Positions 2,672 to 25,239 of a DNA stretch of 32,000 bases are shown piece by piece (position 1 is the stretch's first letter; every line of letters starts with the position of its first letter). A program made the translations under genes and the position numbers. The notes beneath the pieces are model-generated. The model ran no database searches. It saw only the letters and a program-made list of their open reading frames with translations, and was not told where the DNA came from. Origin of the DNA: Trichlorobacter lovleyi SZ (GTDB lineage Bacteria; Desulfobacterota; Desulfuromonadia; Geobacterales; Pseudopelobacteraceae); NCBI RefSeq assembly GCF_000020385.1, contig NC_010814.1, positions 3,360,001 through 3,392,000 of the forward strand. The letters are read 5' to 3'.

Positions 2672-3430
2672 TTAGCCGGGATCATCCGCGACCGTCAGGG
2701 TAACAGGTGCGGACAATTCGCTCTCAGCAACAACCCCGTCACTCCTTTTGACAACAGTGCTGACAGCGTAACGATAGGTGTGATTACGTTGTACCGACTG
2801 ATCCTCATAGTGGGTAACGTCGCTAGCCAGTGAAGTAATCGGCACAAGTACACCATCGCCTTCGGCCCGGTAGACGGTGTACCCTACCAGGGAGGTGCCT
2901 TGTGACAGCATGCCAGTAATATCAAGCACAACAAATCCACCAAATGCTACGGAGGCCTTGAGCCCAGGCGCGGCAGGGGGGGATAGCAGTGCAGTCACAG
3001 CAGTGACCGTTGCATTACCGGTTATACCGCCTTTTTGCACTGTCTGCAGACGATACTGATAACGCTCACCGGCACGGACATCGGCATCAATCAGGACAAT
3101 CCGGTTGCCATGACGTTGAGCCGGTGCCGGTAAAACAGGATCAATTGTCTGCAGATTCTGGTACTGGTCCTGACAACTGATACAATCCAGTTCTTGGTAG
3201 ACACGCCGCCCGACCAGTACCGCCTCCAGGTCCTCAAGCTTACGGCCTGACAGATCCTTTTCCGGCAGGTCAAAGATCAGCCGCAGGCGAGAACCGCTTT
3301 GTTCAACCTTCAGCTGTTGCGGCGGCTGAGCAACCAGCATGTCCGGATAGAGCAATGGCCCTTTTTTGCCACAGCCGGACATCAGCACCAGCACAGACAC
3401 AAGCAGGAGCCTGTTCCGTCGCGCCGGCAT
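2672..3430 (-). CDS. Lipoprotein with LptM-type N-terminus (CGKKGPLLYP) followed by two FN3-like beta-sandwich modules
   Basis: Signal peptide plus lipobox LMSGC (Cys20), followed directly by GKKGPLLYP, which matches the LPAM_2/LptM motif C-G-x-K-G-P-L-Y-x-P. Residues ~152-247 show the FN3-like pattern GYTVYR...THYED...HTYRYAVSTV. The start lies 2 nt after the argH stop. Confidence 0.7.
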   Translation of the reverse strand: MPARRNRLLLVSVLVLMSGCGKKGPLLYPDMLVAQPPQQLKVEQSGSRLRLIFDLPEKDLSGRKLEDLEAVLVGRRVYQELDCISCQDQYQNLQTIDPVLPAPAQRHGNRIVLIDADVRAGERYQYRLQTVQKGGITGNATVTAVTALLSPPAAPGLKASVAFGGFVVLDITGMLSQGTSLVGYTVYRAEGDGVLVPITSLASDVTHYEDQSVQRNHTYRYAVSTVVKRSDGVVAESELSAPVTLTVADDPG

Positions 3431-4815: not shown

Positions 4816-5991
4816 CTACTCCTTCTGTACGTTGGACTCTGTTACAGCTTCATCTTCGCCGTTATACCCTGATGAGGGGACTTTTTCCCATCCCCCCCGT
4901 GATGAACGCTGCATGATGGTATGGACCTTGAGCGGCACACGGGAGCTACGCGGATCGATCTCATGGTGTAACGGCAGGTTAAAATACAGCAGCCGGGTGG
5001 CGCTGCCAAAACGCAGGCGGCAGACCGGAGCGCCGCTGAAATCATCGGTTGCAAACTCACGGGATTGCACCTTTTCCAAGCGGTGATTCCGGTTGATCAC
5101 CACATAGGAATGGCCAAAGCCCTGGGACTGAACCGTACCTTCCAGTGTGGTTTCATCAGAGGCATTACCAAAAACCGTTACTGTTTCACGCACACCGGGC
5201 AGGTCTTCCAGATATTCTCCATAGAACCCGCACACCACATCCCGATAGGCCTGGTGCTCCGGTTTCGGGTTACACTGGATCACAAACAGGGTATCCAGCC
5301 CTTGGCGTGTTGTAAAGAACAGCTGGTTGGCATGATCTATAATCTGTTTGATATTTGAGCTGTACAGATCCCGGTAGAGGTAGTCGAGACAGATGATTGC
5401 CATGAAATTAAAGCAGGAAGGTCTACTGCGCAGCAGATAGAAGTGTCTTCCGCGATACAGGTCATGGTACTTGTCGATAAACTCCTCACCGTGAAACGGA
5501 TGGCTCTTAGCCTCAAGAAAGACCCGCAGGCCTCCATCCGACTCCTTGACCAGGACCATGCACCAGTTAACCGGCATCTCCAGCACATCACCCGAATCAA
5601 TATCGCGGTCAACCAGCTCGATCGCCTCCTGGTTATCAGCTTTGAAGCGTTCAAGAAACCGGCGATACTCCCGCAGCCTGACATGCTCAATACCGATCAT
5701 GGTAACGGTATTGGGGCGGAATCCTTTTTCAATCACCAGCAACAGCTCGTCCAGACGGTTAACCGGCAGGCACGATTCAGGAAAGAGCAGAAAATGAAGC
5801 TTCTTAAGGTTCCCCTCGCCGGCAGCCACCAGGTCAAGGACCGATTTGATCGCCTCCCACTGTGTTTCCTGTTCAACGGGATGAAATCCGGCCTCACGAT
5901 GCAGGTGGTTAGGCAGCTGAGCAATCAGACAGTGGAGATGGTGCCCCAGCGGAAAGGAGAGCTGGACCTTTTTATCGATAACCATTGGCAT
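4816..5991 (-). CDS. Uncharacterised protein with nitrilase/CN-hydrolase-like Glu-Lys-Cys motifs plus a ~100-aa C-terminal extension
   Basis: 391 aa with a strong SD (AGGAG, 7-nt spacer). Motifs are LLFPES (E72, codon 5776-5778), EAKSHPFHGEE (K162, codon 5506-5508) and AIICLDYLY (C201, codon 5389-5391). The spacings of 90 and 39 aa are typical of the nitrilase superfamily. Assignment is by eye only. Confidence 0.45.
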   Translation of the reverse strand: MPMVIDKKVQLSFPLGHHLHCLIAQLPNHLHREAGFHPVEQETQWEAIKSVLDLVAAGEGNLKKLHFLLFPESCLPVNRLDELLLVIEKGFRPNTVTMIGIEHVRLREYRRFLERFKADNQEAIELVDRDIDSGDVLEMPVNWCMVLVKESDGGLRVFLEAKSHPFHGEEFIDKYHDLYRGRHFYLLRSRPSCFNFMAIICLDYLYRDLYSSNIKQIIDHANQLFFTTRQGLDTLFVIQCNPKPEHQAYRDVVCGFYGEYLEDLPGVRETVTVFGNASDETTLEGTVQSQGFGHSYVVINRNHRLEKVQSREFATDDFSGAPVCRLRFGSATRLLYFNLPLHHEIDPRSSRVPLKVHTIMQRSSRGGWEKVPSSGYNGEDEAVTESNVQKE

Positions 5992-9807: not shown

Positions 9808-10389
9808 TCAGTTCTGCTTTAGTACCTTGATCCTGCCATCTGCCACATAGCCCGCTTTACGCAATTCCTGAATGTAGGCCACATCATTTTTCCAGTCAAT
9901 GGTCAGGTCCAGCTTACCCGTCCCCTTCTCTGTGGCTGCCTGCAGACGGAACTCATACTCGCCCGGGTCAAGCTTGTAACTGAGCCCCTTGCTGGTGGCA
10001 AAGTCCTCATTCAGGAACAGAATGATATCCCTGCGGGGTTTTGACAGGGCGGGACGAAAGACCCCTTCCTGTTTCGCGTTGGCGGCATAGGAAGAATACT
10101 TGCCGTCATAGCTCTTGGTCTGCTTGACGTACAGCACCACCCTGAACTTTTTGCCGCCATCCGCCTGGGGGCCAACCGGGTCAGTCAAGCAGACCAGTGC
10201 CCACATCTCCTTATTGAAATCCAGTTCCGTGACAGCTTCCGGCAGCGGCTTGTCACGATCTATCTCGCGGTCAAAAAAAGTGATCGTGCCCGGTGTCTTG
10301 CCCGCACACAGCTCTTTTGCCTGGACAGCAGCAACGGTTACCAGAAGCGACGCCAATACAACAACTGCACGTGCAAGCCTTTTCATCAT
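9808..10389 (-). CDS. Secreted protein of unknown function embedded in the arg operon
   Basis: Start moved to the ATGATG at 10389, which is preceded by AAGGGG at 10395-10400. Signal peptide MMKRLARAVVVLASLLVTVAAVQA-KE. The mature ~170 aa carry no motif I recognise. Confidence 0.6.
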   Translation of the reverse strand: MMKRLARAVVVLASLLVTVAAVQAKELCAGKTPGTITFFDREIDRDKPLPEAVTELDFNKEMWALVCLTDPVGPQADGGKKFRVVLYVKQTKSYDGKYSSYAANAKQEGVFRPALSKPRRDIILFLNEDFATSKGLSYKLDPGEYEFRLQAATEKGTGKLDLTIDWKNDVAYIQELRKAGYVADGRIKVLKQN

Positions 10390-10410
10390 GGAATCCCCTT
10401 CCATAAACGC

Positions 10411-12402: not shown

Positions 12403-15033
12403 CTACCCCATGAGTGCTGACACAGCAGCAAGTGCTTCCGGCAGCTTTTCAGGCTGGCTGCCACCGGCCTGTGCCAGTTCAGGCTTACCGCCGCCACGTC
12501 CGCCAATAATCGGTGCCAGCGTACCTACCAGCTCACCGGCCTTGAAGCGGCCGGTCAGATCCTTGGTTACCGTTACCAGCAGGTTCGCCTTGCCGTCCAG
12601 CTCAGCCCCCAGCACGACAACACCTGAACCGAGCTTGTCGCGCAGCTGATCGGCCATATCACGTAGTGCCTTGATGTCAACGACCTGTACCTGCACCGCC
12701 AACAGCTTAACCCCACCCGCCTCCTGCACCTGGCTTAACAGATCGCCGGACTGGGCTGTATTCAGCTTGCCCTGCAGAGACTCTACCTCGCGTTGCAGTT
12801 CCCGTTGACGCTCCACCAGCTTTTCAACCCGGTCAACCAGCTTGCTGCTATCAGCTTTGAGCAGCTCAGCCACGGTCTGACGTTCACCTTCAAGACGGCG
12901 GACAAAACTCAAGGCATTAAATCCGGTGGCACCTTCAATCCGACGCACTCCGGCAGCAATCCCGCCTTCCGACAGAATCTTGAACAGACCGATATCACCG
13001 GCTGCCCGCACATGGGTACCACCGCACAGTTCGGCGCTCACCTCACCGATCCGCACAACCCGCACGGTGCTGCCGTACTTTTCATCAAACAGCGCAGTTG
13101 CTCCGCTCTCCACCGCCTCCTGCATCCCCATTTCACGGATGTTCAGCTCGGCATTATCCATAATCCAGCCGTTGACCAGATCTTCAACCTGCTGCAACTC
13201 TTCAGGAGTCACACCGGTAAAGTGAGTGAAATCAAACCTCAGGCGATTTGGTTCAACCAGTGAGCCGGCCTGCTTGATATGTTCGCCAAGCACCTGGCGC
13301 AAGGCCGCCTGCAGCAGATGGGTGGCAGAGTGATTGCGGGCAGTTGCCCGGCGCTTATCAATGGCAACGGTCAGGTTGACCGCGTCTCCGGTCTTGATGG
13401 CCCCCTCTTTGACCAATGCATGATGCACCACCAGATCCGTGAAAGGGCGGGAGGTTGCCAGCACCTCAAGACGGGCGCTGCCACTGGAGATACAACCGGT
13501 ATCGCCGGCCTGGCCACCTGACTCGCCATAGAACGGGCTGGTATCACAGATCAGATCAATCTTGTCTCCGGCTGTTGCCGACTGCACCTTCTTGCCATCA
13601 CGCAGCAGTGCCGTGACCGGCGAAAAGGCGGTCAGGCTGCCGTAGCCGACAAAATTGGTCCGCAGACCATGATTGTGCAGTTCCTTGTAGACATCGGCAA
13701 TCCCGGCAGCCCCGGAGCCTTTCCAATGCTCGCGCCCCAGCTCCCGCTGATGCTCCATGCAGGCCTCAAAGCCCGGTTCATCGACACTGAACCCTTCAGC
13801 TCTGACGATATCCTCGGTCAGATCCACGGGAAAGCCAAAGGTGTCATAGAGTTTGAAGAGGGTCTCACCGGGAATAACGGAACAACCGCCGGCACGCAGA
13901 CTGGCAACTTCCTCATTCAGAATCGCCAGACCACGGTCAAGGGTCTCGTTGAATCGTTCCTCTTCGGCCAGCACCACCTTGCGAATATAGGTCTCACGCT
14001 CGGCCAGCTCCGGGTAGGCATCCCCCATCATTTCCCGCACCGCATCCACCATCCGGCAGAGCAACGGCTCGGCCACTCCCAGCATCTTGGCATGACGGGC
14101 AGCCCGGCGCATGATCCGGCGCAACACATAGCCGCGTCCTTCATTGCTGGGCAGAGCACCATCACAGATCAGGAAGGTCACTGCCCGGCAGTGATCAGCG
14201 ATCACCCGCATCGAGACGCTATCCTTTTCATTATCGCCATATTTCTTGCCGCTGTGACGTTCGATATGACGGATAATCCCCTGCAGCAGGTCAGTATCGT
14301 AGTTGGAGCGAACCCCCTGCATGACCGTGGTGATCCGTTCCAGCCCCATCCCGGTATCCACGGCCGGTTTGGGCAACGGATGCAGCACGCCGTCAGCCGT
14401 GCGATTGAACTGCATGAAGACATTGTTCCAGATCTCCATGTAGCGGTCACAGTCGCAGCCTACGGCACAATCAGGCGAGCCACAGCCCACCTCAGGACCG
14501 TTGTCCCAGAAAATCTCGGTACAGGGACCGCAAGGACCGGTGTCCCCCATGGACCAGAAATTATCCTTTTCACCAAAGCGATAGATCCGCTCGCGAGGCA
14601 CGCCCTCCTGTTGATGCCAGATATCGGCCGCCTCATCGTCATCGGTATAGACCGTCACATACAGGCGGCTGGTATCCAGCCCCAGATCCTTGGTCAGGAA
14701 CTCCCAGGCAAAGGCAATCGCCTCCTTCTTAAAGTAATCACCAAAGGAAAAGTTGCCCAGCATCTCAAAAAAGGTATGGTGGCGGGCAGTGCGCCCAACG
14801 TTTTCCAGATCGTTATGCTTGCCACCGGCCCGGACACATTTCTGGGAGGAAGCAGCCCGGTAATAGCCCCGGTCCTCCATCCCCAGAAAACAGTCTTTAA
14901 ACTGATTCATACCGGCGTTGGTAAACATCAGGGTCGGATCGTTCTGGGGAATCAGCCCTGAACTTGACACCACAACGTGTCCCCGATCCTCAAAATACTT
15001 CAGAAAACGTGCGCGAATTTCATTACCGGTCAT
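12403..15033 (-). CDS. alaS: Alanine--tRNA ligase
   Basis: 876 aa with class-II motifs ([29 protein letters not shown]), editing-domain HSATHLL...CGGTH, and a C-terminal DHHA1-like [15 protein letters not shown]. Confidence 0.97.
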
Positions 15034-15036
15034 GTA

Positions 15037-15357
15037 CTATTTTCCTTCCTGAGCTGGTCGACGTTTATCAGCTGACGGCAGGTCAGTGGGCAGCCAGGTT
15101 TCAATATAGCGGCCATTTTCGTCGATTTTATTAATATAACGTTTCACCTCGCCGGTATGGGTGTCCAGTAAAAACACGGCCTGGTGAACATAGGTCTCCT
15201 TGCGCTTGAGATCAAAGGTGGTGTAGCTGCCCTGAAACAGGGCATACCGTCCGGTCTCCTGATTTGGCGTTGCAGCCTTGACCGGATTGGCAAACGCTAT
15301 GATCGGCACGATCAACAGGGCCAGATAGAGGCCCACCATTCTGCCATATCGTTTCAT
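15037..15357 (-). CDS. Small secreted protein (106 aa), last gene of the envelope module, 3 nt upstream of alaS
   Basis: SD GGGAGG. Signal peptide MKRYGRMVGLYLALLIVPIIAFANPVKA-AT. No recognisable family. Confidence 0.6.
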   Translation of the reverse strand: MKRYGRMVGLYLALLIVPIIAFANPVKAATPNQETGRYALFQGSYTTFDLKRKETYVHQAVFLLDTHTGEVKRYINKIDENGRYIETWLPTDLPSADKRRPAQEGK

Positions 15358-15366
15358 GTTGCCTCC

Positions 15367-17592
15367 CTACTCAACCACCAGCACTGCCGATGGTTCGCTT
15401 TCCAAGCCATCACCGTCCTCTGCCGTCACATACAGCTCCAGCTTGCCGGACTCAGTACACCGCCACTCGGTTGCTTCAACCGTTGTCAGCTTCTGCCCCC
15501 CCATAAAACTCTTCTTGTAGAGATGATATCGTTTCACATCTGCCTGGCCGGACCGTTGCCAACTGACAAGACGGGTCGTCCTGTCTTTCAACTGCAGTCC
15601 CTCAACCGGCTTTGGCAGTGCCTTGGTAGTACCCTTGACCGAGACAGACATCGGACTCATCAGCCCATCGCGGTCAAGCGCCTGCAGCCGGTAGAGATAG
15701 CTCGTGCCATCTTTCAGTTCAGTATCCACCAGTGTTGTTGCACTGGTCCGCTGAAGCTGTTTAAACTCACCGTCTGCCTGTTGTCTGAAGAGAACATATT
15801 CTGCGATATCAGGCTCAGGATTTTTTTGCCAGCGTACCGAAATCCTGCGTGGCTCACCGGATGCTGCGGTCAGACCTGAGGGTGCTGCCGGCAACGCCTT
15901 GGTGGTGGCATTGGAACGGGCACTCAGAGGGCTGACCGCACCACCTGCGTTAAAGGCGGCAATCACATAGGAATAGGTCGTGGCGTCCTTGAGCGGTTCC
16001 TCAGCATCGCGGTACGAGCGTTTGTCGGCGGTCAACTCGGCAATTCTGACCAGCTTTTCCTGACCCGGTTCGCCACGGTACAGATAAAAGCCACTCACTT
16101 CATCATCAGCAACGGCAGCTGATTCCCAGGTGAGTGTAACTCTTCTGGGCTCCCCCTGCAGTGCGGTCAGCTTGAGCGGTACCGGCGGCAGATCACGGGT
16201 TGTTGCGGCGACCTCTCCAGAAGGCCCGCCAGTTCCCAGCTCCTTACTGAATGCCACGATCCGGTACCAGTAGGTGGTTTTGTCCGCCAGCCCCGTATCC
16301 AGATAACTGGTCTGCAGGCGGTCGTTCATGGTGGCGATCACCTGGTAGGGACCTTCTTTGGCCATTGCCCGCTGAAGAACATAACCGTTCACACCGGCAA
16401 ACGGATGAACTGGCCAACTCAGCGCTATGCGCCGTACCTTACCACTGCCGGCCGTGAGAGCACTGGTTGCCGGCGGCGTTGTCAAGGAAAGCTGTACCGA
16501 TTGTTCACTTTCAGCACCAGCCAGGTTGTAGGCGGTCATGGTATACAGATAGGTGGTGCCATCCTGCAGCCCCTGGTCACGGAAGACGGGTTGGTCGTCC
16601 GCGACTCTGGCGATTGGAAGAAATTCCTTTTCGGCTGCTGAACGCCGATAGATCCGGACCCCTTTCGGCAGGGTCCTTTCATCGCTTCCTGGGCAGGGGC
16701 GTTGACGCCAGCTCAATATGGCCCCGCCGAGTATCGGCTCAACATTCATAAAGATCGGAACCGCAGGCGCAACCGACGTCGCCCCGCGCACAACGGCTGT
16801 CGGCTCGCTGGCCGTACCACCTTGGCCAACAGCCGTCACCCGATAGAAGTAGGTCTCATTCAACCGCAACGGTTCATCACTGTAGCCCGGCTCGGTTACA
16901 GTGCCGACGGTGGTAAACGGTCCCTGGGGCTCATTGGCCCGCAGAACCAGATAACCGACCACGCGTTCCGGCGAGGGATGTCTCCAGCGCAGACGGATCG
17001 CGCTGGTAGAACCAACAGCCTCAAGGGCCGCAGCAGGGGCAAGCGGTTTGGACAGTTCCGGTGCTGTTACAGCTTCAGCAGATCTCTGAGCAGCCTGGCG
17101 AATCCGCAGGGCCAGCTCCTGCAGTGAGCGGGTGGCATCAGCCTCACTCAGCCGCAGCTTTTCAGTCAGAATTACCCGTTGTCCCCGCAGGTTGAGTACA
17201 CTCAGTTCCATCAACATTCCCTGGGACTGGGTCGTCACACTGCCGCTGACCAGATACTCCACCCCCAGCCGCCCCCCAAGCCGTTGCAGTTCTGCACCGG
17301 AAAGGGAATCAGACCTGACCCCCTCCAGATCCATGGCAGCCTCAAGACGTTTGCGTTCAGCAACCTCAAATGAGCCGCTTCGCTCCAGCTCATTCAGCAA
17401 CAGCGTGGTCAGATATTCGGTAAAACTCATGGCCTCGATAGTCCGGGCCACAAACGGTACGCAGCCCAGCTTGGCCTTCAACTGCTGTTCAGCCGCCTCA
17501 ACCGGACTCAACTGGATACAGAGCATGATGACAACAGTAAGCCAGGCCACTGCCGTCAGGCACATTTTTTTACACGTGTCAGTGATTCCCAT
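15367..17592 (-). CDS. Exported protein: CsgG/LpoB-like N-terminal module followed by six fibronectin type III repeats
   Basis: Start placed at ATG 17592 (GGAGAG SD, 7-nt spacer); the track ORF begins at TTG 17613. Signal peptide ends ...QLSPVEA-AE. Residues ~46-158 read VPFVARTIE...LLNELERSGSFEVAERKRLEAAMDLEG...GVEYLVSGSV...LSVLNLRGQRV. These are followed by six repeats of ~90 aa with the W...GY.lyR...Y.D..l...t.Y.Y.v.A pattern. Confidence 0.75.
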   Translation of the reverse strand: MGITDTCKKMCLTAVAWLTVVIMLCIQLSPVEAAEQQLKAKLGCVPFVARTIEAMSFTEYLTTLLLNELERSGSFEVAERKRLEAAMDLEGVRSDSLSGAELQRLGGRLGVEYLVSGSVTTQSQGMLMELSVLNLRGQRVILTEKLRLSEADATRSLQELALRIRQAAQRSAEAVTAPELSKPLAPAAALEAVGSTSAIRLRWRHPSPERVVGYLVLRANEPQGPFTTVGTVTEPGYSDEPLRLNETYFYRVTAVGQGGTASEPTAVVRGATSVAPAVPIFMNVEPILGGAILSWRQRPCPGSDERTLPKGVRIYRRSAAEKEFLPIARVADDQPVFRDQGLQDGTTYLYTMTAYNLAGAESEQSVQLSLTTPPATSALTAGSGKVRRIALSWPVHPFAGVNGYVLQRAMAKEGPYQVIATMNDRLQTSYLDTGLADKTTYWYRIVAFSKELGTGGPSGEVAATTRDLPPVPLKLTALQGEPRRVTLTWESAAVADDEVSGFYLYRGEPGQEKLVRIAELTADKRSYRDAEEPLKDATTYSYVIAAFNAGGAVSPLSARSNATTKALPAAPSGLTAASGEPRRISVRWQKNPEPDIAEYVLFRQQADGEFKQLQRTSATTLVDTELKDGTSYLYRLQALDRDGLMSPMSVSVKGTTKALPKPVEGLQLKDRTTRLVSWQRSGQADVKRYHLYKKSFMGGQKLTTVEATEWRCTESGKLELYVTAEDGDGLESEPSAVLVVE

Positions 17593-17615
17593 GCCGCGAC
17601 TCTCCAGAATCAAAC

Positions 17616-19598
17616 TTATTGCTGTTCAGCTGACTGCAGATACTGCTCAATACCCAGTTTGGCCTGGGATGTTACCTGGCTGGCGACGTGCTTGACCTCT
17701 TCAGCCACAATGGCATCCATGTACCGCTCGACTACCTGATCGCCGCCCCCCTTTTTGCTCAGCAGCTCGGCTGCCTGCAGATAGCTGGCCTGACGATTTT
17801 GGAAGCGCGTAAGCACCAGGCGCCCCAACTCGGCAATCCCCTCATCAACCGCCTTCTCAAGCAGGACGGCATCGGAAGGCAATTCCATCGGATCAAAGGG
17901 GATATTGGCAAACTCAACCCCTTCAGAAAACTTGTCTTCCGCCTCTTTGCGGCTCTTGATCGTGGTGGTAATCACGACCTCCCCTGACTCCACATCAATC
18001 ACCCGGAATGAGAGTGCTACGTTGGCGGTTTTCTTGTGGGTACCGACCTTGTATTTCACTGTCTCACGGATCTCTTCCTTCATCAGTGCCGGCGGTGCCA
18101 GGGCCATCTCCTTCTCGTTGGGAGACGGATGGCTCAAAAGCCAGCTCTGGTAGGCCGGATTGGGAACCTGCTTGGTGGCCACCACCACGTTGACCATCTT
18201 GGAACCTTCTTCAGCACTTTTTTCCACATTGTACTGCAGTACGCTACCGAAGATAAAAATGTCCGTTCCCTTTAACTTACCGGTCTTTTTGGCGCTTTCG
18301 ATGTCATAGAGGCCGGCTTGACCAAACTCGATCTCCTTGATGATGGCCCCCAGCACGTCCCTGGCCAGAATCTTGACATCGCTGCTAGCGTTCTTGGTCA
18401 TATAGGAAAGCAGACTGTCGGTTACCAGCTTACCGGCATCAGTACTGTTCGTTGGAGGCGAAAAATCCATCACCGCAATTTTTTTAACCACCCGTTGCCG
18501 CAGCCTGTCTTTGAGGGTCTGTAACCGCTGCTGGCTTTCACGATCGCCACCTCCCAGCCGTATCGACAGATCAAGCCAGTACCAGGCATTGCCCAGCAAG
18601 CCCGTTGTTTCCATTTCCTGGGATTTTGCAGCCATATCTGCTGCAAGCTGTTTACGCAGGTCCGCCGCCTCCGCCTCTTTCATGAAGGCAGGAGAGAACT
18701 GCCGCCCTGCCTGTAACGACAGGTAGGCGGTATAGAACTGCTTCTTGCTGGTCTGAACCATCCCCTGCTGTAACATTTTTTGCGCACCCTGACGCCGCAA
18801 TTCGGTCATTTTCGTCTGCAGCACCTGATCCGGGCTCAGCAGTTCCGCCTTACCCAGATAGCCTGCGACCTGGAGCCACTTCCCCTGCTTGGCGCTCTGC
18901 TCGGCCTTCCCAAACCAGACACTGGCGGTATTTTTGACCTTGGCATCCTTCAGCAATCCGGCAATTTGCTGATTAGCCGGTTGAATCGCCAGTGCCTGTT
19001 CCAGATTGACAATCATCGCATCCAGGTCATCAGCAGTCCGCAGCTGCTCAGCCTGTTTCAGGTAATATCCAAGCGCGGCGTTTTCTGTCTGGGGCAGCTT
19101 GATCATCAGATCCAGATAGCCGGGGTAGAACTGGCGGATCTCCCGCAGCTTGTTGATGGCCGTTGGCCAGTCCTTCAGATCCGCAGCTTTGGTTGAGGCA
19201 GCATATAACGCTTCAGCTCTTTTCAGCAGGGCATCCATCTGGGACTTGACACTGCTCGCCAGCACCTTTGCATCATTATTGTGGGGGTCAGCCTTAAGCG
19301 CCTTGTCAACATCCAGCTGAGCGGTACGCAGCTGATCATAGGTGATCTCGGCGCCTTGCAGCCGCTTGTGGCCCTGCTCAACAAAACGGGCGGCGGCACC
19401 GGAGCGGGCACTGGCCAGGACTGCCCGGTACTCCTGATTATCCTGTTCTTTGACAATCGCATCTTCGTACAGGGTAATGGCCTCATCAACCCGCCCCTGA
19501 CGTTCCAGTTGTCGGCCAAGCTCAAAGCTCTCCTTGCCGGGATTGTTACAACCGGTAAGCAATACCACTATACCAAGTACCAACAGTATCCGTTTCAT
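17616..19598 (-). CDS. Lipoprotein with N-terminal TPR-like repeats (~350 aa) and a C-terminal CsgG-like module
   Basis: Lipobox LLTGC (Cys17). TPR-like helices (GRVDEAITLYEDAIVKEQDNQEY etc.). Residues ~370-600 read KKIAVMDFSP...ILARDVLGAIIKEIEFGQ...GTDIFIFGSVLQY...VALSFRVIDVESGEVV, which is the CsgG-family pattern. ATGA overlap with the upstream gene. Confidence 0.75.
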   Translation of the reverse strand: MKRILLVLGIVVLLTGCNNPGKESFELGRQLERQGRVDEAITLYEDAIVKEQDNQEYRAVLASARSGAAARFVEQGHKRLQGAEITYDQLRTAQLDVDKALKADPHNNDAKVLASSVKSQMDALLKRAEALYAASTKAADLKDWPTAINKLREIRQFYPGYLDLMIKLPQTENAALGYYLKQAEQLRTADDLDAMIVNLEQALAIQPANQQIAGLLKDAKVKNTASVWFGKAEQSAKQGKWLQVAGYLGKAELLSPDQVLQTKMTELRRQGAQKMLQQGMVQTSKKQFYTAYLSLQAGRQFSPAFMKEAEAADLRKQLAADMAAKSQEMETTGLLGNAWYWLDLSIRLGGGDRESQQRLQTLKDRLRQRVVKKIAVMDFSPPTNSTDAGKLVTDSLLSYMTKNASSDVKILARDVLGAIIKEIEFGQAGLYDIESAKKTGKLKGTDIFIFGSVLQYNVEKSAEEGSKMVNVVVATKQVPNPAYQSWLLSHPSPNEKEMALAPPALMKEEIRETVKYKVGTHKKTANVALSFRVIDVESGEVVITTTIKSRKEAEDKFSEGVEFANIPFDPMELPSDAVLLEKAVDEGIAELGRLVLTRFQNRQASYLQAAELLSKKGGGDQVVERYMDAIVAEEVKHVASQVTSQAKLGIEQYLQSAEQQ

Positions 19599-20791
19599 TT
19601 TACGCGCCCTCCTTTACTGGGGCGACCCTGCCACCTGGCCTGCACCTGCCCCGCTGAATAGCCGATAATCTTCAGTGAATCCTGCTCCAGCCCCAATGCG
19701 GCCAGCTCATCAATCACTTCCCTGAATCCACCAGTCACCTCGAGATCCAGACGCAGTTGCTGATCCCGATAGCCTCGGTCATGCACCTCTTCAATCTGCC
19801 CCACCTGCTCCTTCAAGGCATCCTGCAAGCGCTTGATATCTGTCTGGGGAATCATACTCACCGTCATACGCAATGTTCTCAAACCGGTCAGCCGCTTGGT
19901 CCAGGCCGCAATCATCTGACGTTGCAACCCCTCGCTCAACTCTGCGGCCGCCTTTTCAAAGGCTTCACTGGTTGCGGTCGCCGGATTGACATGCAGGGCC
20001 TGCTGTGTCGCGGTCACAGTGGCCAGCAGCTCCCCGCTGTCCACCTCAACGGCACGACAGGTAACCGTTACCTGCACCGGACGCAGATTGGTTCCGCTTA
20101 AGGCAGAGGTCGACCGGGCAGTGGCACGGCCGACAATCACAATTTCCGCCCCGCCTGCTGCGGCAGCACGAACCACGGCATCAGTCTGATCTCCCTGCTT
20201 GTTGACCGCTTCATGTTGCACTGCCAGCATGGCCTGACGATCAACCAGGGCATAGCCCCGCTTGCCCAGGCTTGAGACAAGACCGTTCTCCACCACACCG
20301 CCCGGAATGGCATTGCCAAAACCGTTCTGTTCCATCACCACCACGGCAATCCGTGGTTTTCCCATTTTTTTGATCAACAGGCCGGCATTATCCAGTCCCT
20401 GTTCCAGTTTATGGCGGGAAACCGAAGCAAAAACCAGGATACGAAAGGCATCGCCATCCACCTTTTCACCAAGAATCCGGTAGGTTTTGATGAACCCCTT
20501 ACTCTTGGAAAAGATTTTATCGTTCAGCAGCTCCGAATCCTTGACCACCGTCTTCGACTCAAGTGCCACCCCCACAACCTGCTCGACAGCCCGTCTAAAG
20601 GCATTCTGCAGGGCCGCCTCGCGGGCCAGATCCTTGCGGTCCGCCACAATGGTGGCATACCCTTCAACCTCGACAACACCGGTTTGCTGATCTGCGGCGG
20701 CCATTCCCGCCGACAGTATCACAGCCAAAGAGAGCCCCAAGAACCGCCTCAGCAGCACAGCTACAGCAGCCTGAACTGTTGTGTTTTTCAT
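19595..20791 (-). CDS. Exported LPP20/FlgT-N-like protein with a CsgG/FlgT-M-like middle module and an uncharacterised C-terminal domain
   Basis: Start placed at ATG 20791, because the AAGGAG SD at 20799-20804 lies between it and the track ATG at 20809. Signal peptide ends ...SAGMAAA-DQ. VVEVEGYATIVADRKDLAREAALQNAFRRAVEQVVG is LPP20/FlgT_N-like. PRIAVVVMEQN...LVDRQAMLAV...GAEIVIVGRA...CRAVEVDSGELL is CsgG-like. Confidence 0.65.
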   Translation of the reverse strand: MKNTTVQAAVAVLLRRFLGLSLAVILSAGMAAADQQTGVVEVEGYATIVADRKDLAREAALQNAFRRAVEQVVGVALESKTVVKDSELLNDKIFSKSKGFIKTYRILGEKVDGDAFRILVFASVSRHKLEQGLDNAGLLIKKMGKPRIAVVVMEQNGFGNAIPGGVVENGLVSSLGKRGYALVDRQAMLAVQHEAVNKQGDQTDAVVRAAAAGGAEIVIVGRATARSTSALSGTNLRPVQVTVTCRAVEVDSGELLATVTATQQALHVNPATATSEAFEKAAAELSEGLQRQMIAAWTKRLTGLRTLRMTVSMIPQTDIKRLQDALKEQVGQIEEVHDRGYRDQQLRLDLEVTGGFREVIDELAALGLEQDSLKIIGYSAGQVQARWQGRPSKGGRVK

Positions 20792-20839
20792 GGGTCTTCT
20801 CCTTTCCATCTACGCCGGCAAGCACCGGGAATCTGTGTA

Positions 20840-21304
20840 TTATTTCTCAAACAACTGCCTGATCAGATCACTCCGGTATCCGCGACGCTGCAAAAACCCG
20901 GCTACCCGCCGCAACTGTCGTTCATCAGCTGCCTGCGGATCAAACCCGGCATAACGGCGTTCAACCAGATGACGGGCACGTTCCAGCTCATCGCCATCAG
21001 CGGGTGATTCCCGCAAAACCTGATCAATCAGTTCCGGCGGTACTCCGCGGCGGCGTAACTCCTGCTGCAGGCGATAGCCGGTAAAACTCCCGTTCTGCCT
21101 CACTGCGGCTACCAGACGCTCGGCATAGCGCTGATCCTGCAGGTAACCTTCCCGGATCAGCCGTTCAACCGCCTGCTGCGCTTCTTCGGCAGCAAACCGT
21201 TTTTGTTGCAACTTACGTCGAAGGGCTGCACAGGTGTAATCCCGGCCGGTCAGCAGCCTGAGCGCTGCCAGATAGCAATCGCTGGGCTGGTTAGAACCGG
21301 TCAA
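20840..21304 (-). CDS. recX: Recombination regulator RecX
   Basis: 154 aa of repeated three-helix motifs: YLAALRLLTGRDYTCAALRRKLQQKRF..., GYLQDQRYAERL, and ELRRRGVPPELIDQVL. Located in the recA neighbourhood. Confidence 0.85.
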   Translation of the reverse strand: MTGSNQPSDCYLAALRLLTGRDYTCAALRRKLQQKRFAAEEAQQAVERLIREGYLQDQRYAERLVAAVRQNGSFTGYRLQQELRRRGVPPELIDQVLRESPADGDELERARHLVERRYAGFDPQAADERQLRRVAGFLQRRGYRSDLIRQLFEK

Positions 21305-22454
21305 CGTCGAGTTTTTCCTCTTTCAGCACCTCGTCAACCTTCTCATCCTTGTTATCAAAATTATCCCAGGTTGCATCAGAAGTAGATGAGATACCGGAAA
21401 CCTTGAGGGCAAAATCATCCGGATTGGAACTTTGCCGCAGCGCCTCTTCATACGTAATCAGCTTTGAGGTGAACAGCTTCATCAAGGACTGGTCAAAGGT
21501 CTGCATGCCATAGGAGACAAAGCCCTGTGCAATGGCATCCTTGATCTGCTTGGTCTTGTCCTTGTCGTCAATACACTCTTTCACCCGCGCAGTCCCCAGC
21601 AGCACTTCAACGGCGGGAACACGTCCCTTGCCATCGGCCCGCGGTACCAGGCGCTGAGAGATAATTCCCTTGATGATACTGGCCATCTGAATCCGCACCT
21701 GACGCTGGTGGTAGGGCGGGAAGACCGAGATAATCCGGTTGATGGTCTCAGGTGCATCCATGGTATGCAGGGTTGACATCACCAAATGGCCGGTCTCGGC
21801 GGCGGTCATGGCGGTTTCGATGGTCTCGTAGTCCCGCATCTCGCCCACCAGGATCACGTCCGGGTCCTGACGCAAGGCCCCCTTCAACGCACTTGAGAAA
21901 GTCGGCGTATCGGTACCCACCTCCCGCTGGCTGATAATACACTTGTTATCGCGATGCAGAAACTCCACCGGGTCCTCAATCGTGATGATGTTACAGGTCC
22001 GGTGGTTGTTGATATGATCGATCATGGCTGCCAGCGTGGACGATTTACCGGAGCCGGTGGTACCGGTCACCAGGATCAGCCCCCGTTCTTCAAGGCAGAG
22101 CTTCTGCAATACCGGTGGCAGATTCAGCTCCTCCATGGTCGGAATCTTCATCGAAATGGCCCGGAAGACCAGCGCAATAGTCCCCCGCTGTCGATAGCAG
22201 GCCACCCGGAAACGCCCCAGGCCCGGCACCGCATAGGCCATATCCACCTCGGAGTTCTCCTCGAAGATCCTCCGCTGGCGGTCATTCATCATCATGTTGG
22301 CGATGCTGCTGACCACATCAGGCCCCAGACGCTGGGCATTGGGGATCGGGTGCAGCTTGCCGTCAATCCGTACAATAGGCGGCAGACCGGTCTTGATATG
22401 TATATCTGAACCGCGCGCCTTGACGGCAATCGTGAGAATTTCGTTCAGCTCCAC
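21291..22454 (-). CDS. PilT/PilU-family type IV pilus retraction ATPase (PilU-like C-terminus; lacks the AIRNLIRE motif)
   Basis: 387 aa, GTG start with GGAGG SD. Walker A GTTGSGKSST, Walker B ILVGEMRD, His box GHLVMSTLHT. The C-terminus GMQTFDQSL...ITYEEALR resembles PilU as I remember it. Its 3' end overlaps the recX start by 14 nt. Confidence 0.88.
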   Translation of the reverse strand: MELNEILTIAVKARGSDIHIKTGLPPIVRIDGKLHPIPNAQRLGPDVVSSIANMMMNDRQRRIFEENSEVDMAYAVPGLGRFRVACYRQRGTIALVFRAISMKIPTMEELNLPPVLQKLCLEERGLILVTGTTGSGKSSTLAAMIDHINNHRTCNIITIEDPVEFLHRDNKCIISQREVGTDTPTFSSALKGALRQDPDVILVGEMRDYETIETAMTAAETGHLVMSTLHTMDAPETINRIISVFPPYHQRQVRIQMASIIKGIISQRLVPRADGKGRVPAVEVLLGTARVKECIDDKDKTKQIKDAIAQGFVSYGMQTFDQSLMKLFTSKLITYEEALRQSSNPDDFALKVSGISSTSDATWDNFDNKDEKVDEVLKEEKLDVDRF

Positions 22455-23582: not shown

Positions 23583-24065
23583 TCAGGCCGTTTCAGGCAC
23601 TACAAGCCGCTTTTTCAGCAAAAAAAGCGCCTGTTCCGTGGTTTGCAGCCGAACCGACTCACGTCCGCCCTGAAACTGGTACCGATCCGTCACACAGCCA
23701 TCATGATCAGCAAGGGCGATGTAGACCGTCCCGACCGGTTTTTCCAGGGTACCGCCATCTGGTCCGGCAATACCGGTAACCGCCAGAGCCAGATCGCTAC
23801 CGATTACCCTGCGAGCCCCCTCTGCCATGGCCCGGGCAACCGCTTCACTCACCGCACCATGCTGTTCAAGAAGCCCGCCGGGAACCTGCAACAACTGCTG
23901 TTTTATATCATTGTGGTAGGCCACGACCCCCCCTCTGAACCAGGCGGAACAGCCGGAGATTGTAGTAACCCGTTCTGCAATCATACCACCGGTGCAGGAC
24001 TCTGCCAGGGCCAGGGTCATACCGGAGGCAAGAAACCGTGTTGCCAGCTCCTGCTCAGCGCTCAT
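23583..24065 (-). CDS. pncC: CinA C-terminal-domain protein / nicotinamide-nucleotide amidohydrolase (PncC type)
   Basis: 160 aa from ATG 24065. [38 protein letters not shown] is the PncC/CinA_C signature. Overlaps the larC stop by 11 nt. The classical cinA-recA adjacency is present. Confidence 0.85.
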
Positions 24066-25239
24066 GGCAATACTCCCTACGGACGATCTGCTGCACCTTG
24101 CGCAATGCAAGCCCCCGTTCGCGGGCAATCCGACAACAGTCTTCATATTCTGGCTTACTGCCCTGCTGGCTGATCTTGAATCTTACTGTCCCCAGCGAGG
24201 TCTGACACACCTCAATCCGGCGCTGCTGCACAAGGCGCTGCATCTGCTGCAGCCGCACCCCCAAGGTACCGGTTTCTTTCATCACCAGTTGCACCATCCG
24301 GTCCTTCTGCTCAGGCCGGCAGAGTAGCGACAGCATCTGACCAGGCCGCTGCTTCTTCATCTGGATCGGCGTATGCCAGACATCCAGCGCCCCGGCCGCA
24401 AACAGTTGCTCCATGGTGTACCCCAGCTGCTCAGGAGTAACATCATCCAGATTGCAGCTCAGCTCAAGTATGGTCTCATGATCGGCCTGTTCTGGCAGTT
24501 CTCCCAGGAAACCGCGCAGGATGTTGGGGACATCCGCAAAATCCCTGCTCCCGGCTCCATGACCAACCTGTGAGATAATCATATGTGGCATGTTTGTAAC
24601 CGGTTCTGCCAGGGCAGCCAGAATAGCCGCACCAGTAGGAGTTACCCGTTCCCCAGCTCCGCAATCGGCATGAACCGCCAGACCTTTCAGCAACTCCGCC
24701 GTTGCCGGCGCCGGTACCGGCAGACGGCCATGGGCGGTCTGCACAAAACCACCGCCCAGCGGTACTGCGGAACAGTAGACCCTATCCACCTTCAGCCAGT
24801 CCAGACCAATCGCCGTCCCCACAATATCCACTATGCTGTCAACCGCCCCCACTTCATGGAACTGCACCTGATCCACTGCCACCTGATGTGCTTTGGCTTC
24901 GGCCTCGGCCAGTTGCATAAAGATCTGTTGTGACAGATCCTTCACGCGGCCGGCAAGACTACTTGCAGCGATCATCTGCCTGATATCGGCATAACTCCGG
25001 TGATCGTGGTGGTCATGACGATGATGTCCGTGTTGATGGGGCAGATGTACCACAAAATGCCTGCCGGTCATGCCACCGCGTTGGACCTGTTCGTCACTCA
25101 GCACAAAGGCTTCATGCGGCAAACCAAGCCTGCCCAGCTCATTGTTCAGATGGGTTAACGGCACACCGAGATCCAGCAGGACGGCCACCGTCATATCACC
25201 GGCAATACCGGCGGTAGCATCAAAGTAGAGGATACGCAT
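24055..25239 (-). CDS. larC: Nickel-pincer cofactor biosynthesis protein LarC (nickel insertion)
   Basis: 394 aa with N-terminal [16 protein letters not shown], a His-rich tract [16 protein letters not shown], and a C-terminal DUF111-type region. Confidence 0.88.

Follow-up and report, generated by a model that had tools for sequence, protein, structure and literature searches.

A four-gene cassette of FlgT-like, CsgG-like and blade-type envelope proteins between recX and alaS of Trichlorobacter lovleyi, a candidate outer-membrane-tethered scaffold

The window analysed in this work is a stretch of 32,000 nucleotides (nt) from Trichlorobacter lovleyi SZ (contig NC_010814.1, positions 3,360,001 to 3,392,000), a species formerly placed in Geobacter. 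Between recX and alaS, its minus strand carries a cassette of four tightly coupled genes, here called A, B, C and D: a FlgT-like protein (A), a lipoprotein with tetratricopeptide repeats (TPR) and a CsgG-like domain (B), a CsgG-like module followed by six fibronectin type III (FN3) repeats (C), and what looks like a lone beta-propeller blade (D). By analogy with the relatives of these domains, we tentatively propose that the four products assemble into a hetero-oligomeric periplasmic scaffold, tethered to the outer membrane, probably ring-shaped, and structural in its role in the envelope. Taken as a whole this proposal is plausible, short of probable; the outer-membrane-associated periplasmic hetero-complex is its firmer part, and the ring and the structural role are its less firm ones. 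All the folds involved are known, and it is their combination, the conserved order of the four genes and the non-flagellar setting that are undescribed in the literature we found.

The cassette and its junctions

Along the minus strand the genes follow each other in the order cinA, recA, PilT-like ATPase, recX, A, B, C, D, alaS. Beyond alaS come a response-regulator/histidine-kinase hybrid and then arginine-biosynthesis genes; the window outside the cassette is made of housekeeping genes. The cassette and its flanks are as follows, with lengths in amino acids (aa) of the open reading frames (ORFs).

19595-20791, minus strand: gene A, 398 aa from the ATG at 20791 (a longer ORF reaches 20809)
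17616-19598, minus strand: gene B, ORF of 660 aa
15367-17592, minus strand: gene C, ORF with a ribosome-binding site (a TTG-start ORF reaches 17613)
15037-15357, minus strand: gene D, ORF of 106 aa
20840-21304, minus strand: recX, the upstream flank (Pfam RecX_HTH1/2/3)
12403-15033, minus strand: alaS, the downstream flank (ORF; homologues in collinear loci are annotated tRNA-synt_2c)
21291-22454, minus strand: PilT-like ATPase gene between recA and recX (Pfam T2SSE)

The stop codon of A (TGA) and the start codon of B (ATG) overlap in an ATGA at 19595-19598, and the remaining gaps are of 23 nt (B-C), 9 nt (C-D) and 3 nt (D-alaS). A GGAG-type ribosome-binding site stands before each start codon from A to D. 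A promoter/terminator scan, whose counts were at or below shuffle expectation, gave no terminator-like hairpin between any two genes from recX to alaS, and is informative only for this lack of intergenic terminators. The GC content of the cassette (0.53-0.595, against 0.55-0.58 in the flanks) shows no anomaly. A lipobox in B and plain signal peptides in A, C and D indicate that all four products are exported. Annotation of the window genes revealed no flagellar, curli, penicillin-binding protein (PBP) or pilus-assembly partner, and neither the window nor the cassette of T. lovleyi holds an outer-membrane barrel gene or an amyloid-type subunit. An earlier reading of the window, made from the sequence only, had described four coupled genes for exported proteins in the recX-alaS interval, the same overlap and gaps, and the lack of flagellar, curli and PBP partners in the window; all of this proved exact, down to the coordinates and the junction sequences.

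Gene A encodes a three-domain FlgT-like protein

The product of A is a full-length three-domain FlgT-like protein with a FlgP-type N-terminal domain. Its AlphaFold2 model, obtained with a 41-sequence alignment, has three domains and a mean predicted local distance difference test (pLDDT) of 77.5. The best matches of this model in the PDB, searched with Foldseek, are FlgT in a cryo-EM structure of the Vibrio LPHT-ring (8z5n, E 1.9e-11) and FlgT in a crystal structure (3w1e, E 2.6e-10), aligned over 396-397 columns. Its domain boundaries run parallel to those of Vibrio cholerae FlgT, which are N 24-109, M 121-287 and C 292-377. The domains of A are the following.

20417-20680, minus strand: N-domain, aa ~38-125, of SHS2/FlgP/LPP20/FlgT_N type (Pfam FlgT_N; FlgP profile match)
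19886-20359, minus strand: M-domain, aa ~145-302, a CsgG/TolB_N/FlgT_M-like alpha/beta domain (Foldseek; hhalign to the B module)
19622-19879, minus strand: C-domain, aa ~305-390, FlgT_C-like alpha/beta (AlphaFold2 secondary structure; covered by the FlgT Foldseek alignment)

The next Foldseek matches, all to the middle domain, were CsgG (4uv2, E 3.6e-7), GNA1162, HpaA, LptE, LpoB (4q6l) and PelC. In Pfam, A scored 27.7 bits with FlgT_N (PF16548, cut-off 28.8) and matched LPP20 and CsgG weakly (11.8 bits for CsgG, cut-off 20.8); most of its orthologues carry a precomputed PF16548, and several a precomputed CsgG (PF03783). A Pfam FlgT_C match was found in a paralogous neighbour family (c10). 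The signal peptide of A has no lipobox cysteine, and this holds for all orthologues, meaning that the protein is not lipidated.

Compared with the PDB, the profile of the A family matched Campylobacter jejuni FlgP (9hmf_C) at E 1.5e-8, in an alignment that runs through the hairpin insert of that protein; the match to Vibrio FlgP was weak. In A the insert corresponds to aa ~74-100, between the helix and strand 2 of the N-domain, and it is strongly conserved. A study of the Campylobacter motor found that the FlgP hairpin insert is the basis of the concentric rings, and that the insert correlates with ring formation in the FlgP-type family, FlgT included (PMC12222027). In the monomer model of A the insert has a pLDDT below 50, as would be expected of a segment that orders only in the oligomer.

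A also aligned with the NCBIfam family of the Leptospira lipoprotein LipL46 (NF033164) over residues 41-334, at E 7e-17, which suggests the same multi-domain architecture. With 61.2 bits against an equivalog cut-off of 400 bits, membership was rejected and A is a distant relative only. LipL46, unlike A, is lipidated, and it is known only as a surface antigen/adhesin, with no mechanism.

Gene B encodes a lipoprotein with a CsgG-like domain

The B product bears the NCBI name 'CsgG/HfaB family protein' (T. lovleyi entry, 100% identity), and its homologues form 189 clusters. Its main features are these.

19548-19562, minus strand: lipobox LLTGC, aa 13-17, Gly16 and Cys17 invariant
18489-19535, minus strand: TPR-like region, aa 22-370, 18 helices (~nine helix pairs) by DSSP on the AlphaFold2 model (Pfam TPR; PDB TPR matches)
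17874-18485, minus strand: CsgG-like domain, aa 372-575 (Pfam CsgG; AlphaFold2 model)

Gly16 and Cys17 are unchanged in alignments of 13 and of 47 sequences, the cysteine across ~50 homologues, and position +2 is not Asp. The invariant lipobox and the missing Asp together indicate targeting to the outer membrane. Pfam recognised CsgG (47.0 bits over aa 373-463, cut-off 20.8), TPR families and LPAM_1. The AlphaFold2 model (pLDDT 84.2) consists of a TPR-like solenoid, an alpha/beta domain and a four-helix C-terminal bundle. Foldseek placed TPR proteins first, and the best match outside them was CsgG (4uv2, E 1.5e-4); a search of PDB sequences with the B profile returned TPR proteins only, and is uninformative for the C-terminal domain.

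The beta-hairpin of the CsgG-like domain of B (447-479 / 505-535) is unusually long and ends in a polar helical tip. Charged residues make up 6 of the 23 positions of one strand (457-479) and 9 of the 21 of the other (505-525), and they lie on both faces. Because it is so heavily charged, this hairpin is not of the membrane-spanning type of CsgG, and B as a true CsgG pore was rejected on this ground. The lipid anchor, moreover, lies far from the CsgG-like domain, with ~350 residues of TPR-like helices in between.

Conservation in B peaks in a motif at residues ~411-446 (18261-18368), LARDxLGxxxKEIExGQAGxxxIxxAKKxGxLxGTD. It is almost wholly invariant in 47 sequences, yet the model has a pLDDT below 50 for residues 414-442. 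The motif might form an interface within an oligomer or bind a ligand.

One further candidate for B was TraC, an accessory protein of outer-membrane exchange in Myxococcus, which is likewise an outer-membrane lipoprotein of ~600 aa whose TPRs are N-terminal and whose C-terminal domain is uncharacterised. It was rejected: B scored 36.3 bits with the TraC family (NCBIfam NF040658), far under the cut-off of 500 bits, the similarity is confined to the TPR region, the cassette is without traAB genes, and no mechanism is given in the TraC literature.

Gene C and the module common to A, B and C

C has a signal peptide and lacks a lipobox. Pfam CsgG matched it with 22.8 bits (aa 64-128), above the cut-off of 20.8, and Pfam fn3 at E 1.9e-26. 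An iterated hidden Markov model (HMM) of the family delimited exactly six FN3 domains, with independent E-values (i-E) from 3e-17 to 1e-32. The protein is thus laid out as follows, in the numbering of a 748-aa ORF.

17059-17481, minus strand: N-terminal CsgG/TolB_N-like module, aa ~45-185 (Pfam CsgG; hhalign)
15370-17052, minus strand: six FN3 repeats, aa 188-280, 295-380, 378-473, 474-572, 573-664 and 665-748

The modules of the three proteins were compared by hhalign, using sub-alignments of each family. A(140-305) aligned with B(365-605) at 82.5% probability (E 1e-5), and with C(45-185) at 45% (E 2e-4); B and C aligned in the correct register at E 0.037. By comparison, 25 control pairs with unrelated domains all gave E 0.01 or worse. 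All three proteins share a motif G-x-[DE]-h-h-h-x-G-x-[VA], and Foldseek agrees on a common fold. The modules of A and C have no long hairpins and are too short for transmembrane hairpins. We conclude that A, B and C each hold one alpha/beta module of CsgG/TolB_N/FlgT_M type.

These results bear out most of the domain content that had been proposed from the sequence: a lipobox, TPRs and a CsgG-like domain in B (now backed by Pfam, AlphaFold2 and alignments), a short CsgG-like module and six FN3 repeats in C, and a recurring CsgG/LpoB-like module in A, B and C, upheld by hhalign, Pfam, Foldseek and the motif. The description of A as FlgT_N/LPP20, CsgG-like module and C-terminal domain also holds, and can be refined to a full three-domain FlgT-like protein. 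The Pfam families then expected were found in part: CsgG (in B and C, above its cut-off), TPR and fn3 were matched, LPP20 weakly, and FlgT_N and LpoB scored below their cut-offs.

Gene D resembles a single propeller blade

D carries a signal peptide and has no Pfam match, PD40 included. Its conserved core reads GRYqLFQG...DLK...vFLlDt.TG.VKRY.NkiDE.G.YiEtWlpTd. An exhaustive search of 1.84 billion representative proteins produced only 72 clusters of homologues, mostly proteins of ~100 aa, plus a few giants that Pfam calls PD40-repeat proteins. The D family HMM matches each of these giants 14-19 times, every ~58 residues and always over the same stretch of the profile; its best i-E on a PD40 blade is 1e-5, and D is long enough for one blade only. 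Since the giants' blades are matched in register, the D core looks, as far as sequence can tell, like one beta-propeller blade of PD40/TolB type.

15079-15255, minus strand: blade-like core of D, aa ~35-93 (PD40/TolB-type resemblance by the D family HMM)

A lone blade cannot fold as a propeller, which implies that D homo-oligomerises or complements a partner by a strand.

The resemblance to TolB bears on an alternative function, that of an adaptor or regulator serving cell-wall enzymes or a Tol-Pal-like envelope machinery, in which B would reach through the wall to PBPs in the manner of the outer-membrane lipoprotein activators LpoA and LpoB, and the TolB-type blocks would bind. The cassette does have both blocks of TolB on separate polypeptides, the TolB_N-like modules and the PD40-like blade of D. 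B and C match LpoB and TolB_N profiles weakly (TolB_N, TIGR02800, in C), and LpoB 4q6l is among the Foldseek matches of the A module. Yet every LpoB match is under its cut-off: 15.2 bits for B and 12.6 for C with Pfam LpoB (PF13036, 22.3), and 11.7 with the LpoB-type family TIGR02722 (110). Many lipoproteins have this generic fold (LptE, PelC, GNA1162), D has one blade where TolB has six, and PBP, amidase and tol-pal genes are not near the cassette in any context. We consider the adaptor decidedly improbable. In line with the adaptor, binding to peptidoglycan has been reported for LipL21, an LPP20-type protein of Leptospira.

The quartet is conserved in unrelated genomic contexts

The survey of loci used one genome per GTDB species and mapped the window proteins by tblastn; it yielded 55 loci with a relative of B, numbered here with an L. 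In 32 of the 55, A, B, C and D occur in the same order. Eight loci end at contig edges, and in a few one end of the quartet is missing, leaving A-B-C with no detectable D, or B-C-D with no A. The cassette sits in at least six unrelated genomic contexts, in Desulfuromonadales, related lineages and Nitrospirota. The recX-alaS slot is found in Trichlorobacter and in many metagenome-assembled genomes (MAGs) of Desulfuromonadales. Elsewhere the cassette adjoins methylmalonyl-CoA mutase (L023/L024), is flanked by sodB and an ABC transporter (Citrifermentans bremense), or by thiolase, AhpC and a Ser/Thr-kinase (Geomonas RF6).

In Nitrospirota and one deltaproteobacterial MAG, the quartet lies inside a larger envelope cluster (L043:1323-18979; also L026, L028, L030, L032, L034 and L038). 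There, it is accompanied by an outer-membrane protein (OMP) barrel, a paralogue of A, a CsgG+FlgT_C lipoprotein, a lipoprotein with an SLH (wall-binding) domain, LPP20-like proteins, a transglutaminase, a GNA1162-like/NosD beta-helix/TPR protein, an ankyrin-caspase and DUF4384. In Syntrophaceae, a variant (L048:207-11830; also L046, L049, L051, L052 and L054) consists of LPP20-like genes, an A-like FlgT_N gene, a giant gene for 2,100-3,000 aa of PKD/Ig/SprB repeats which replaces C, and a gene for a B-like lipoprotein. This suggests that the Ig-repeat partner can be hugely expanded.

Among the neighbours in these 55+ loci, no flagellar, curli, PBP, tol-pal, secretin/pilMNOPQ or other pilus-assembly family is recurrent, and partners of csgA/B/E/F type are found neither in the window nor among the recurrent neighbour families. 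The cassette is a self-contained unit, since its order is kept across unrelated contexts without recurrent partner families. The points on which the sequence-only reading could have failed came out in its favour: the shared module exists, the quartet is found together elsewhere, and no known machine is encoded nearby. A role in anti-phage defence was also considered and rejected, as PADLOC had no match for A-D at E up to 0.01.

These contexts weigh on the most obvious idea for a FlgT-like protein, namely a flagellar motor accessory, the Desulfuromonadales equivalent of the H-ring or basal disk round the LP-rings, with A in the place of FlgT/FlgP, and B and C as FlgO/FlgP-like disk or spoke proteins. 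FlgT is indeed the closest structural match of A over all three domains, A is homologous in sequence to FlgP, TPR proteins (PflA, PflB, MotX) and lipoprotein rings are standard in such disks, and NCBI names the A orthologues 'flagellar assembly protein T N-terminal domain-containing'. However, no flagellar gene adjoins the cassette in any of the 55+ loci and at least six contexts, and in T. lovleyi it belongs to a predicted recA-to-alaS read-through unit, not to a flagellar regulon. Close relatives have lost it cleanly (see below), the Nitrospirota clusters pair it with SLH, transglutaminase, caspase and DUF4384 genes, and neither FN3 arrays nor a single-blade protein have a counterpart in known disks. 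A flagellar role appears rather improbable to us.

The Syntrophaceae and Nitrospirota variants bring up another possibility, export or anchoring of the CsgG/HfaB type, modelled on CsgG, which exports curlin, and HfaB, which exports holdfast anchor proteins. B and A would form a conduit or an anchor that places an Ig-repeat fibre (C or the PKD giant), D, or both on the surface. Several observations fit: Pfam CsgG is over its cut-off in B and C, and the NCBI name of B points the same way; an Ig-fold repeat protein always goes with A and B, and in Syntrophaceae its PKD/SprB form is typical of surface fibres; D is small and secreted, like CsgE and CsgF; and an OMP beta-barrel gene is part of the extended Nitrospirota clusters. 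On the other hand, the sole long hairpin of B, charged on both faces, cannot line a membrane barrel, the modules of A and C are too short for such hairpins, and the anchor of B is remote from its CsgG-like domain. To this is added the lack of an amyloid-type subunit and of an outer-membrane barrel gene in T. lovleyi. Export therefore seems unlikely as the function of the quartet.

The cassette is probably an old resident of the recX-alaS slot

Three loci found through recX homologues (L059, L060 and L061) have alaS directly after recX and no cassette. They are collinear with the window: aconitase-type genes, larB, larC, cinA, recA, pilT, recX, then alaS and arg genes. The RecX of L060 is labelled Trichlorobacter sp. 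by NCBI. In a backbone tree of recA+PilT+AlaS (1,593 columns, 200 bootstraps), L060 falls inside the Trichlorobacter clade, nearer the window than the cassette-bearing L007 (191/200 bootstraps), and L059 and L061 group with the cassette-bearing L027 (200/200). The lineages with an empty site thus branch within groups that carry the cassette. This is most parsimoniously explained by a long residence of the cassette between recX and alaS, followed by two deletions or more, rather than by a recent wedge. The sequence-only reading had taken it for an insertion into a housekeeping operon. The existence of collinear relatives with a direct recX-alaS junction agrees with that view, but the tree favours old residence followed by losses. 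As close relatives lost it cleanly, the cassette is dispensable in some lineages at least. A mobile or plasmid island was rejected: no plasmid homologue of B was found, there is no GC anomaly, and the backbone tree shows vertical inheritance.

The empty recX-alaS spacer is ~190 nt long in L061 (9511-9702), against 25-40 nt in L059 and L060. It holds a long inverted repeat (ACACGGAGGCACAGAGAACACGGAG ... CTCCGTGTCTCTGTG), perhaps a repeat element, perhaps a scar where the cassette is missing.

The empty sites also decide on the neighbouring PilT-like gene: as they have kept it, it belongs to the backbone and not to the cassette, and a functional tie to the adjacent pilT was rejected. The sequence-only reading had left open, as speculative, a link to type IV pili through this gene and the TPR lipoprotein, PilF/PilW pilotins being TPR lipoproteins. 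In such a scheme B would be a pilotin of the PilF/PilW/Tgl kind, acting with the PilT-like ATPase. B is a TPR lipoprotein, and the window has a PilT-like gene two genes upstream, while L023 and L037 have one directly after D. Nevertheless, relatives without the cassette have an identical recA-pilT-recX order, most cassette contexts are without a PilT-like gene, and secretin/pilMNOPQ genes are absent from the window and not recurrent in the loci. The pilus accessory is thus very improbable, and the link is not retained.

In L023 and L037, which are contexts other than recX-alaS, the gene directly downstream of D encodes a PilT/T2SSE-type ATPase (L023:12917-14587, plus strand; L037:14771-15871, minus strand), 44-48% identical to the PilT-like protein of the window. 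This recurrent proximity could be due to chance, given the many PilT paralogues of such genomes.

Other genes of the window

The 198-aa ORF at 9808-10404 (minus strand), between argB and argD, encodes a clear signal peptide, matches no family of Pfam or NCBIfam, and would be a second gene for an exported protein set among the housekeeping genes; argB and argD are adjacent or overlapping in the collinear L059 and L060. The 252-aa ORF at 2672-3430 (minus strand) matches, with its first 29 residues, the lipoprotein signature of LptM, a maturation chaperone of the lipopolysaccharide translocon (24.4 bits, cut-off 27.7), and no family beyond residue 29. Between argG and argH, a 391-aa ORF (4816-5991, minus strand) is without Pfam or NCBIfam match, and relatives of the window have a gene of 381-388 aa without Pfam match at the same position.

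The CinA of the window (23583-24146, minus strand) is short, with 187 aa and the CinA domain only, and so is that of L060 (160 aa). L059 (3732-4976) and L061 have the long MoCF_biosynth+CinA form of 414-417 aa. The listed CinA ORF overlaps a larC-like ORF (24055-25239) by ~90 nt, and its true start is for this reason probably further downstream than listed.

Discussion

We favour, tentatively as said above, a scaffold tethered to the outer membrane. In this scheme, the N and M domains of A, which are of FlgP/FlgT type, would drive its oligomerisation into a ring, in the manner of FlgT and FlgP in flagellar H-rings and basal disks. B would join the A ring through its homologous module, supply a TPR platform and fix the ring to the outer membrane at the inner leaflet. 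C would dock by its N-terminal module, and its six-FN3 rod (~20 nm, roughly the length of the periplasm) would point to the cell wall or the inner membrane, while D would homo-oligomerise or complete a partner. The role of the whole might be to brace or space the outer membrane against the wall, or to offer a platform. Constitutive expression of the cassette is predicted, because the recA-pilT-recX transcript would read through it into alaS.

Several points weigh against this proposal. The TM-scores of the Foldseek matches are low (0.23-0.42), because domain orientations differ; Pfam FlgT_N in A is slightly under its cut-off, and the direct similarity of the B and C modules is weak (E 0.037). 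Ring formation is extrapolated from homologous domains, and the structural role is a default reading, as the data point to no ligand, substrate or phenotype. Finally, the Syntrophaceae PKD/Ig giant looks like a surface fibre, and would better fit export or anchoring.

The closest known parallel to the scaffold is the H-ring of Vibrio (FlgT, FlgO, FlgP; 3w1e, 8z5n), which is made of a FlgT ring and lipoprotein rings. A shares the N-M-C layout of FlgT, and in both cases a soluble ring protein, or candidate for one, is paired with outer-membrane lipoproteins bearing small alpha/beta domains. In contrast to the H-ring genes, the cassette has no flagellar genes nearby, A is only ~12% identical to FlgT, the lipoprotein B is a 660-aa fusion of TPR and CsgG-like domain instead of a small FlgO or FlgP, and a six-FN3 protein and a single-blade protein are added. 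With C. jejuni FlgP (9hmf) and LPP20, the likeness is in the N-domain of A, homologous down to the ring-building beta-hairpin insert. FlgP is nevertheless a lipoprotein of 171 aa, whereas A is non-lipidated and has two more domains, and the cassette is without a FlgQ or Pfl partner.

CsgG (4uv2/4uv3) shares its alpha/beta core and PF03783 with B and C, and matches the A module in structure. The modules of the cassette differ from it in lacking the two amphipathic transmembrane hairpins per subunit, and in being fused to TPR, FN3 or FlgT-type domains. The lipidated Cys of CsgG directly precedes the CsgG domain, while the anchor of B is distant and A and C are unlipidated; no csgA/B/E/F-type partners are present. 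PelC and PelB of the Pel exporter, GNA1162, LpoB and LptE have in common with the A, B and C modules the fold class, at the level of the fold only. PelC assembles as a ring below the outer membrane, next to the TPR domain of PelB. The cassette, unlike the Pel exporter, comes without glycosyltransferase or porin genes.

It follows from these comparisons that A is not to be filed as FlgT, from which it differs in context, nor B as CsgG, for want of a pore. Judging by their relatives, A and B probably work as these do, forming oligomeric rings under the outer membrane. It is misleading to call products of the cassette 'CsgG/HfaB family protein' or 'flagellar assembly protein T N-terminal domain-containing protein', as NCBI does.

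A bolder version of the scaffold, possible though doubtful, is a hitherto unrecognised non-flagellar organelle, a disk or ring lying below the outer membrane and distributed from Desulfuromonadales to Nitrospirota. A would form the ring, B the anchor and a TPR rim, C periplasm-spanning FN3 spokes, and D subunits would together make up a propeller.

FlgT, FlgP and CsgG are textbook ring-builders, known only from flagella and the curli machine. Here, a FlgT-like protein with a FlgP-type hairpin, three CsgG/TolB_N modules, an FN3 rod and a lone blade are found together in two phyla, with no flagellar or curli neighbours. For bacteria that reduce metals and dechlorinate, as for Nitrospirota of groundwater, this points to an uncharacterised assembly in the envelope. 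T. lovleyi can be cultivated, and closely related natural lineages offer a precise deletion of the cassette. The finding also bears on a question of the flagellar-motor field, the origin of accessory disks: if the disk organelle were real, it would be a free-standing source from which components of the flagellar H-ring and basal disk were recruited, or the reverse.

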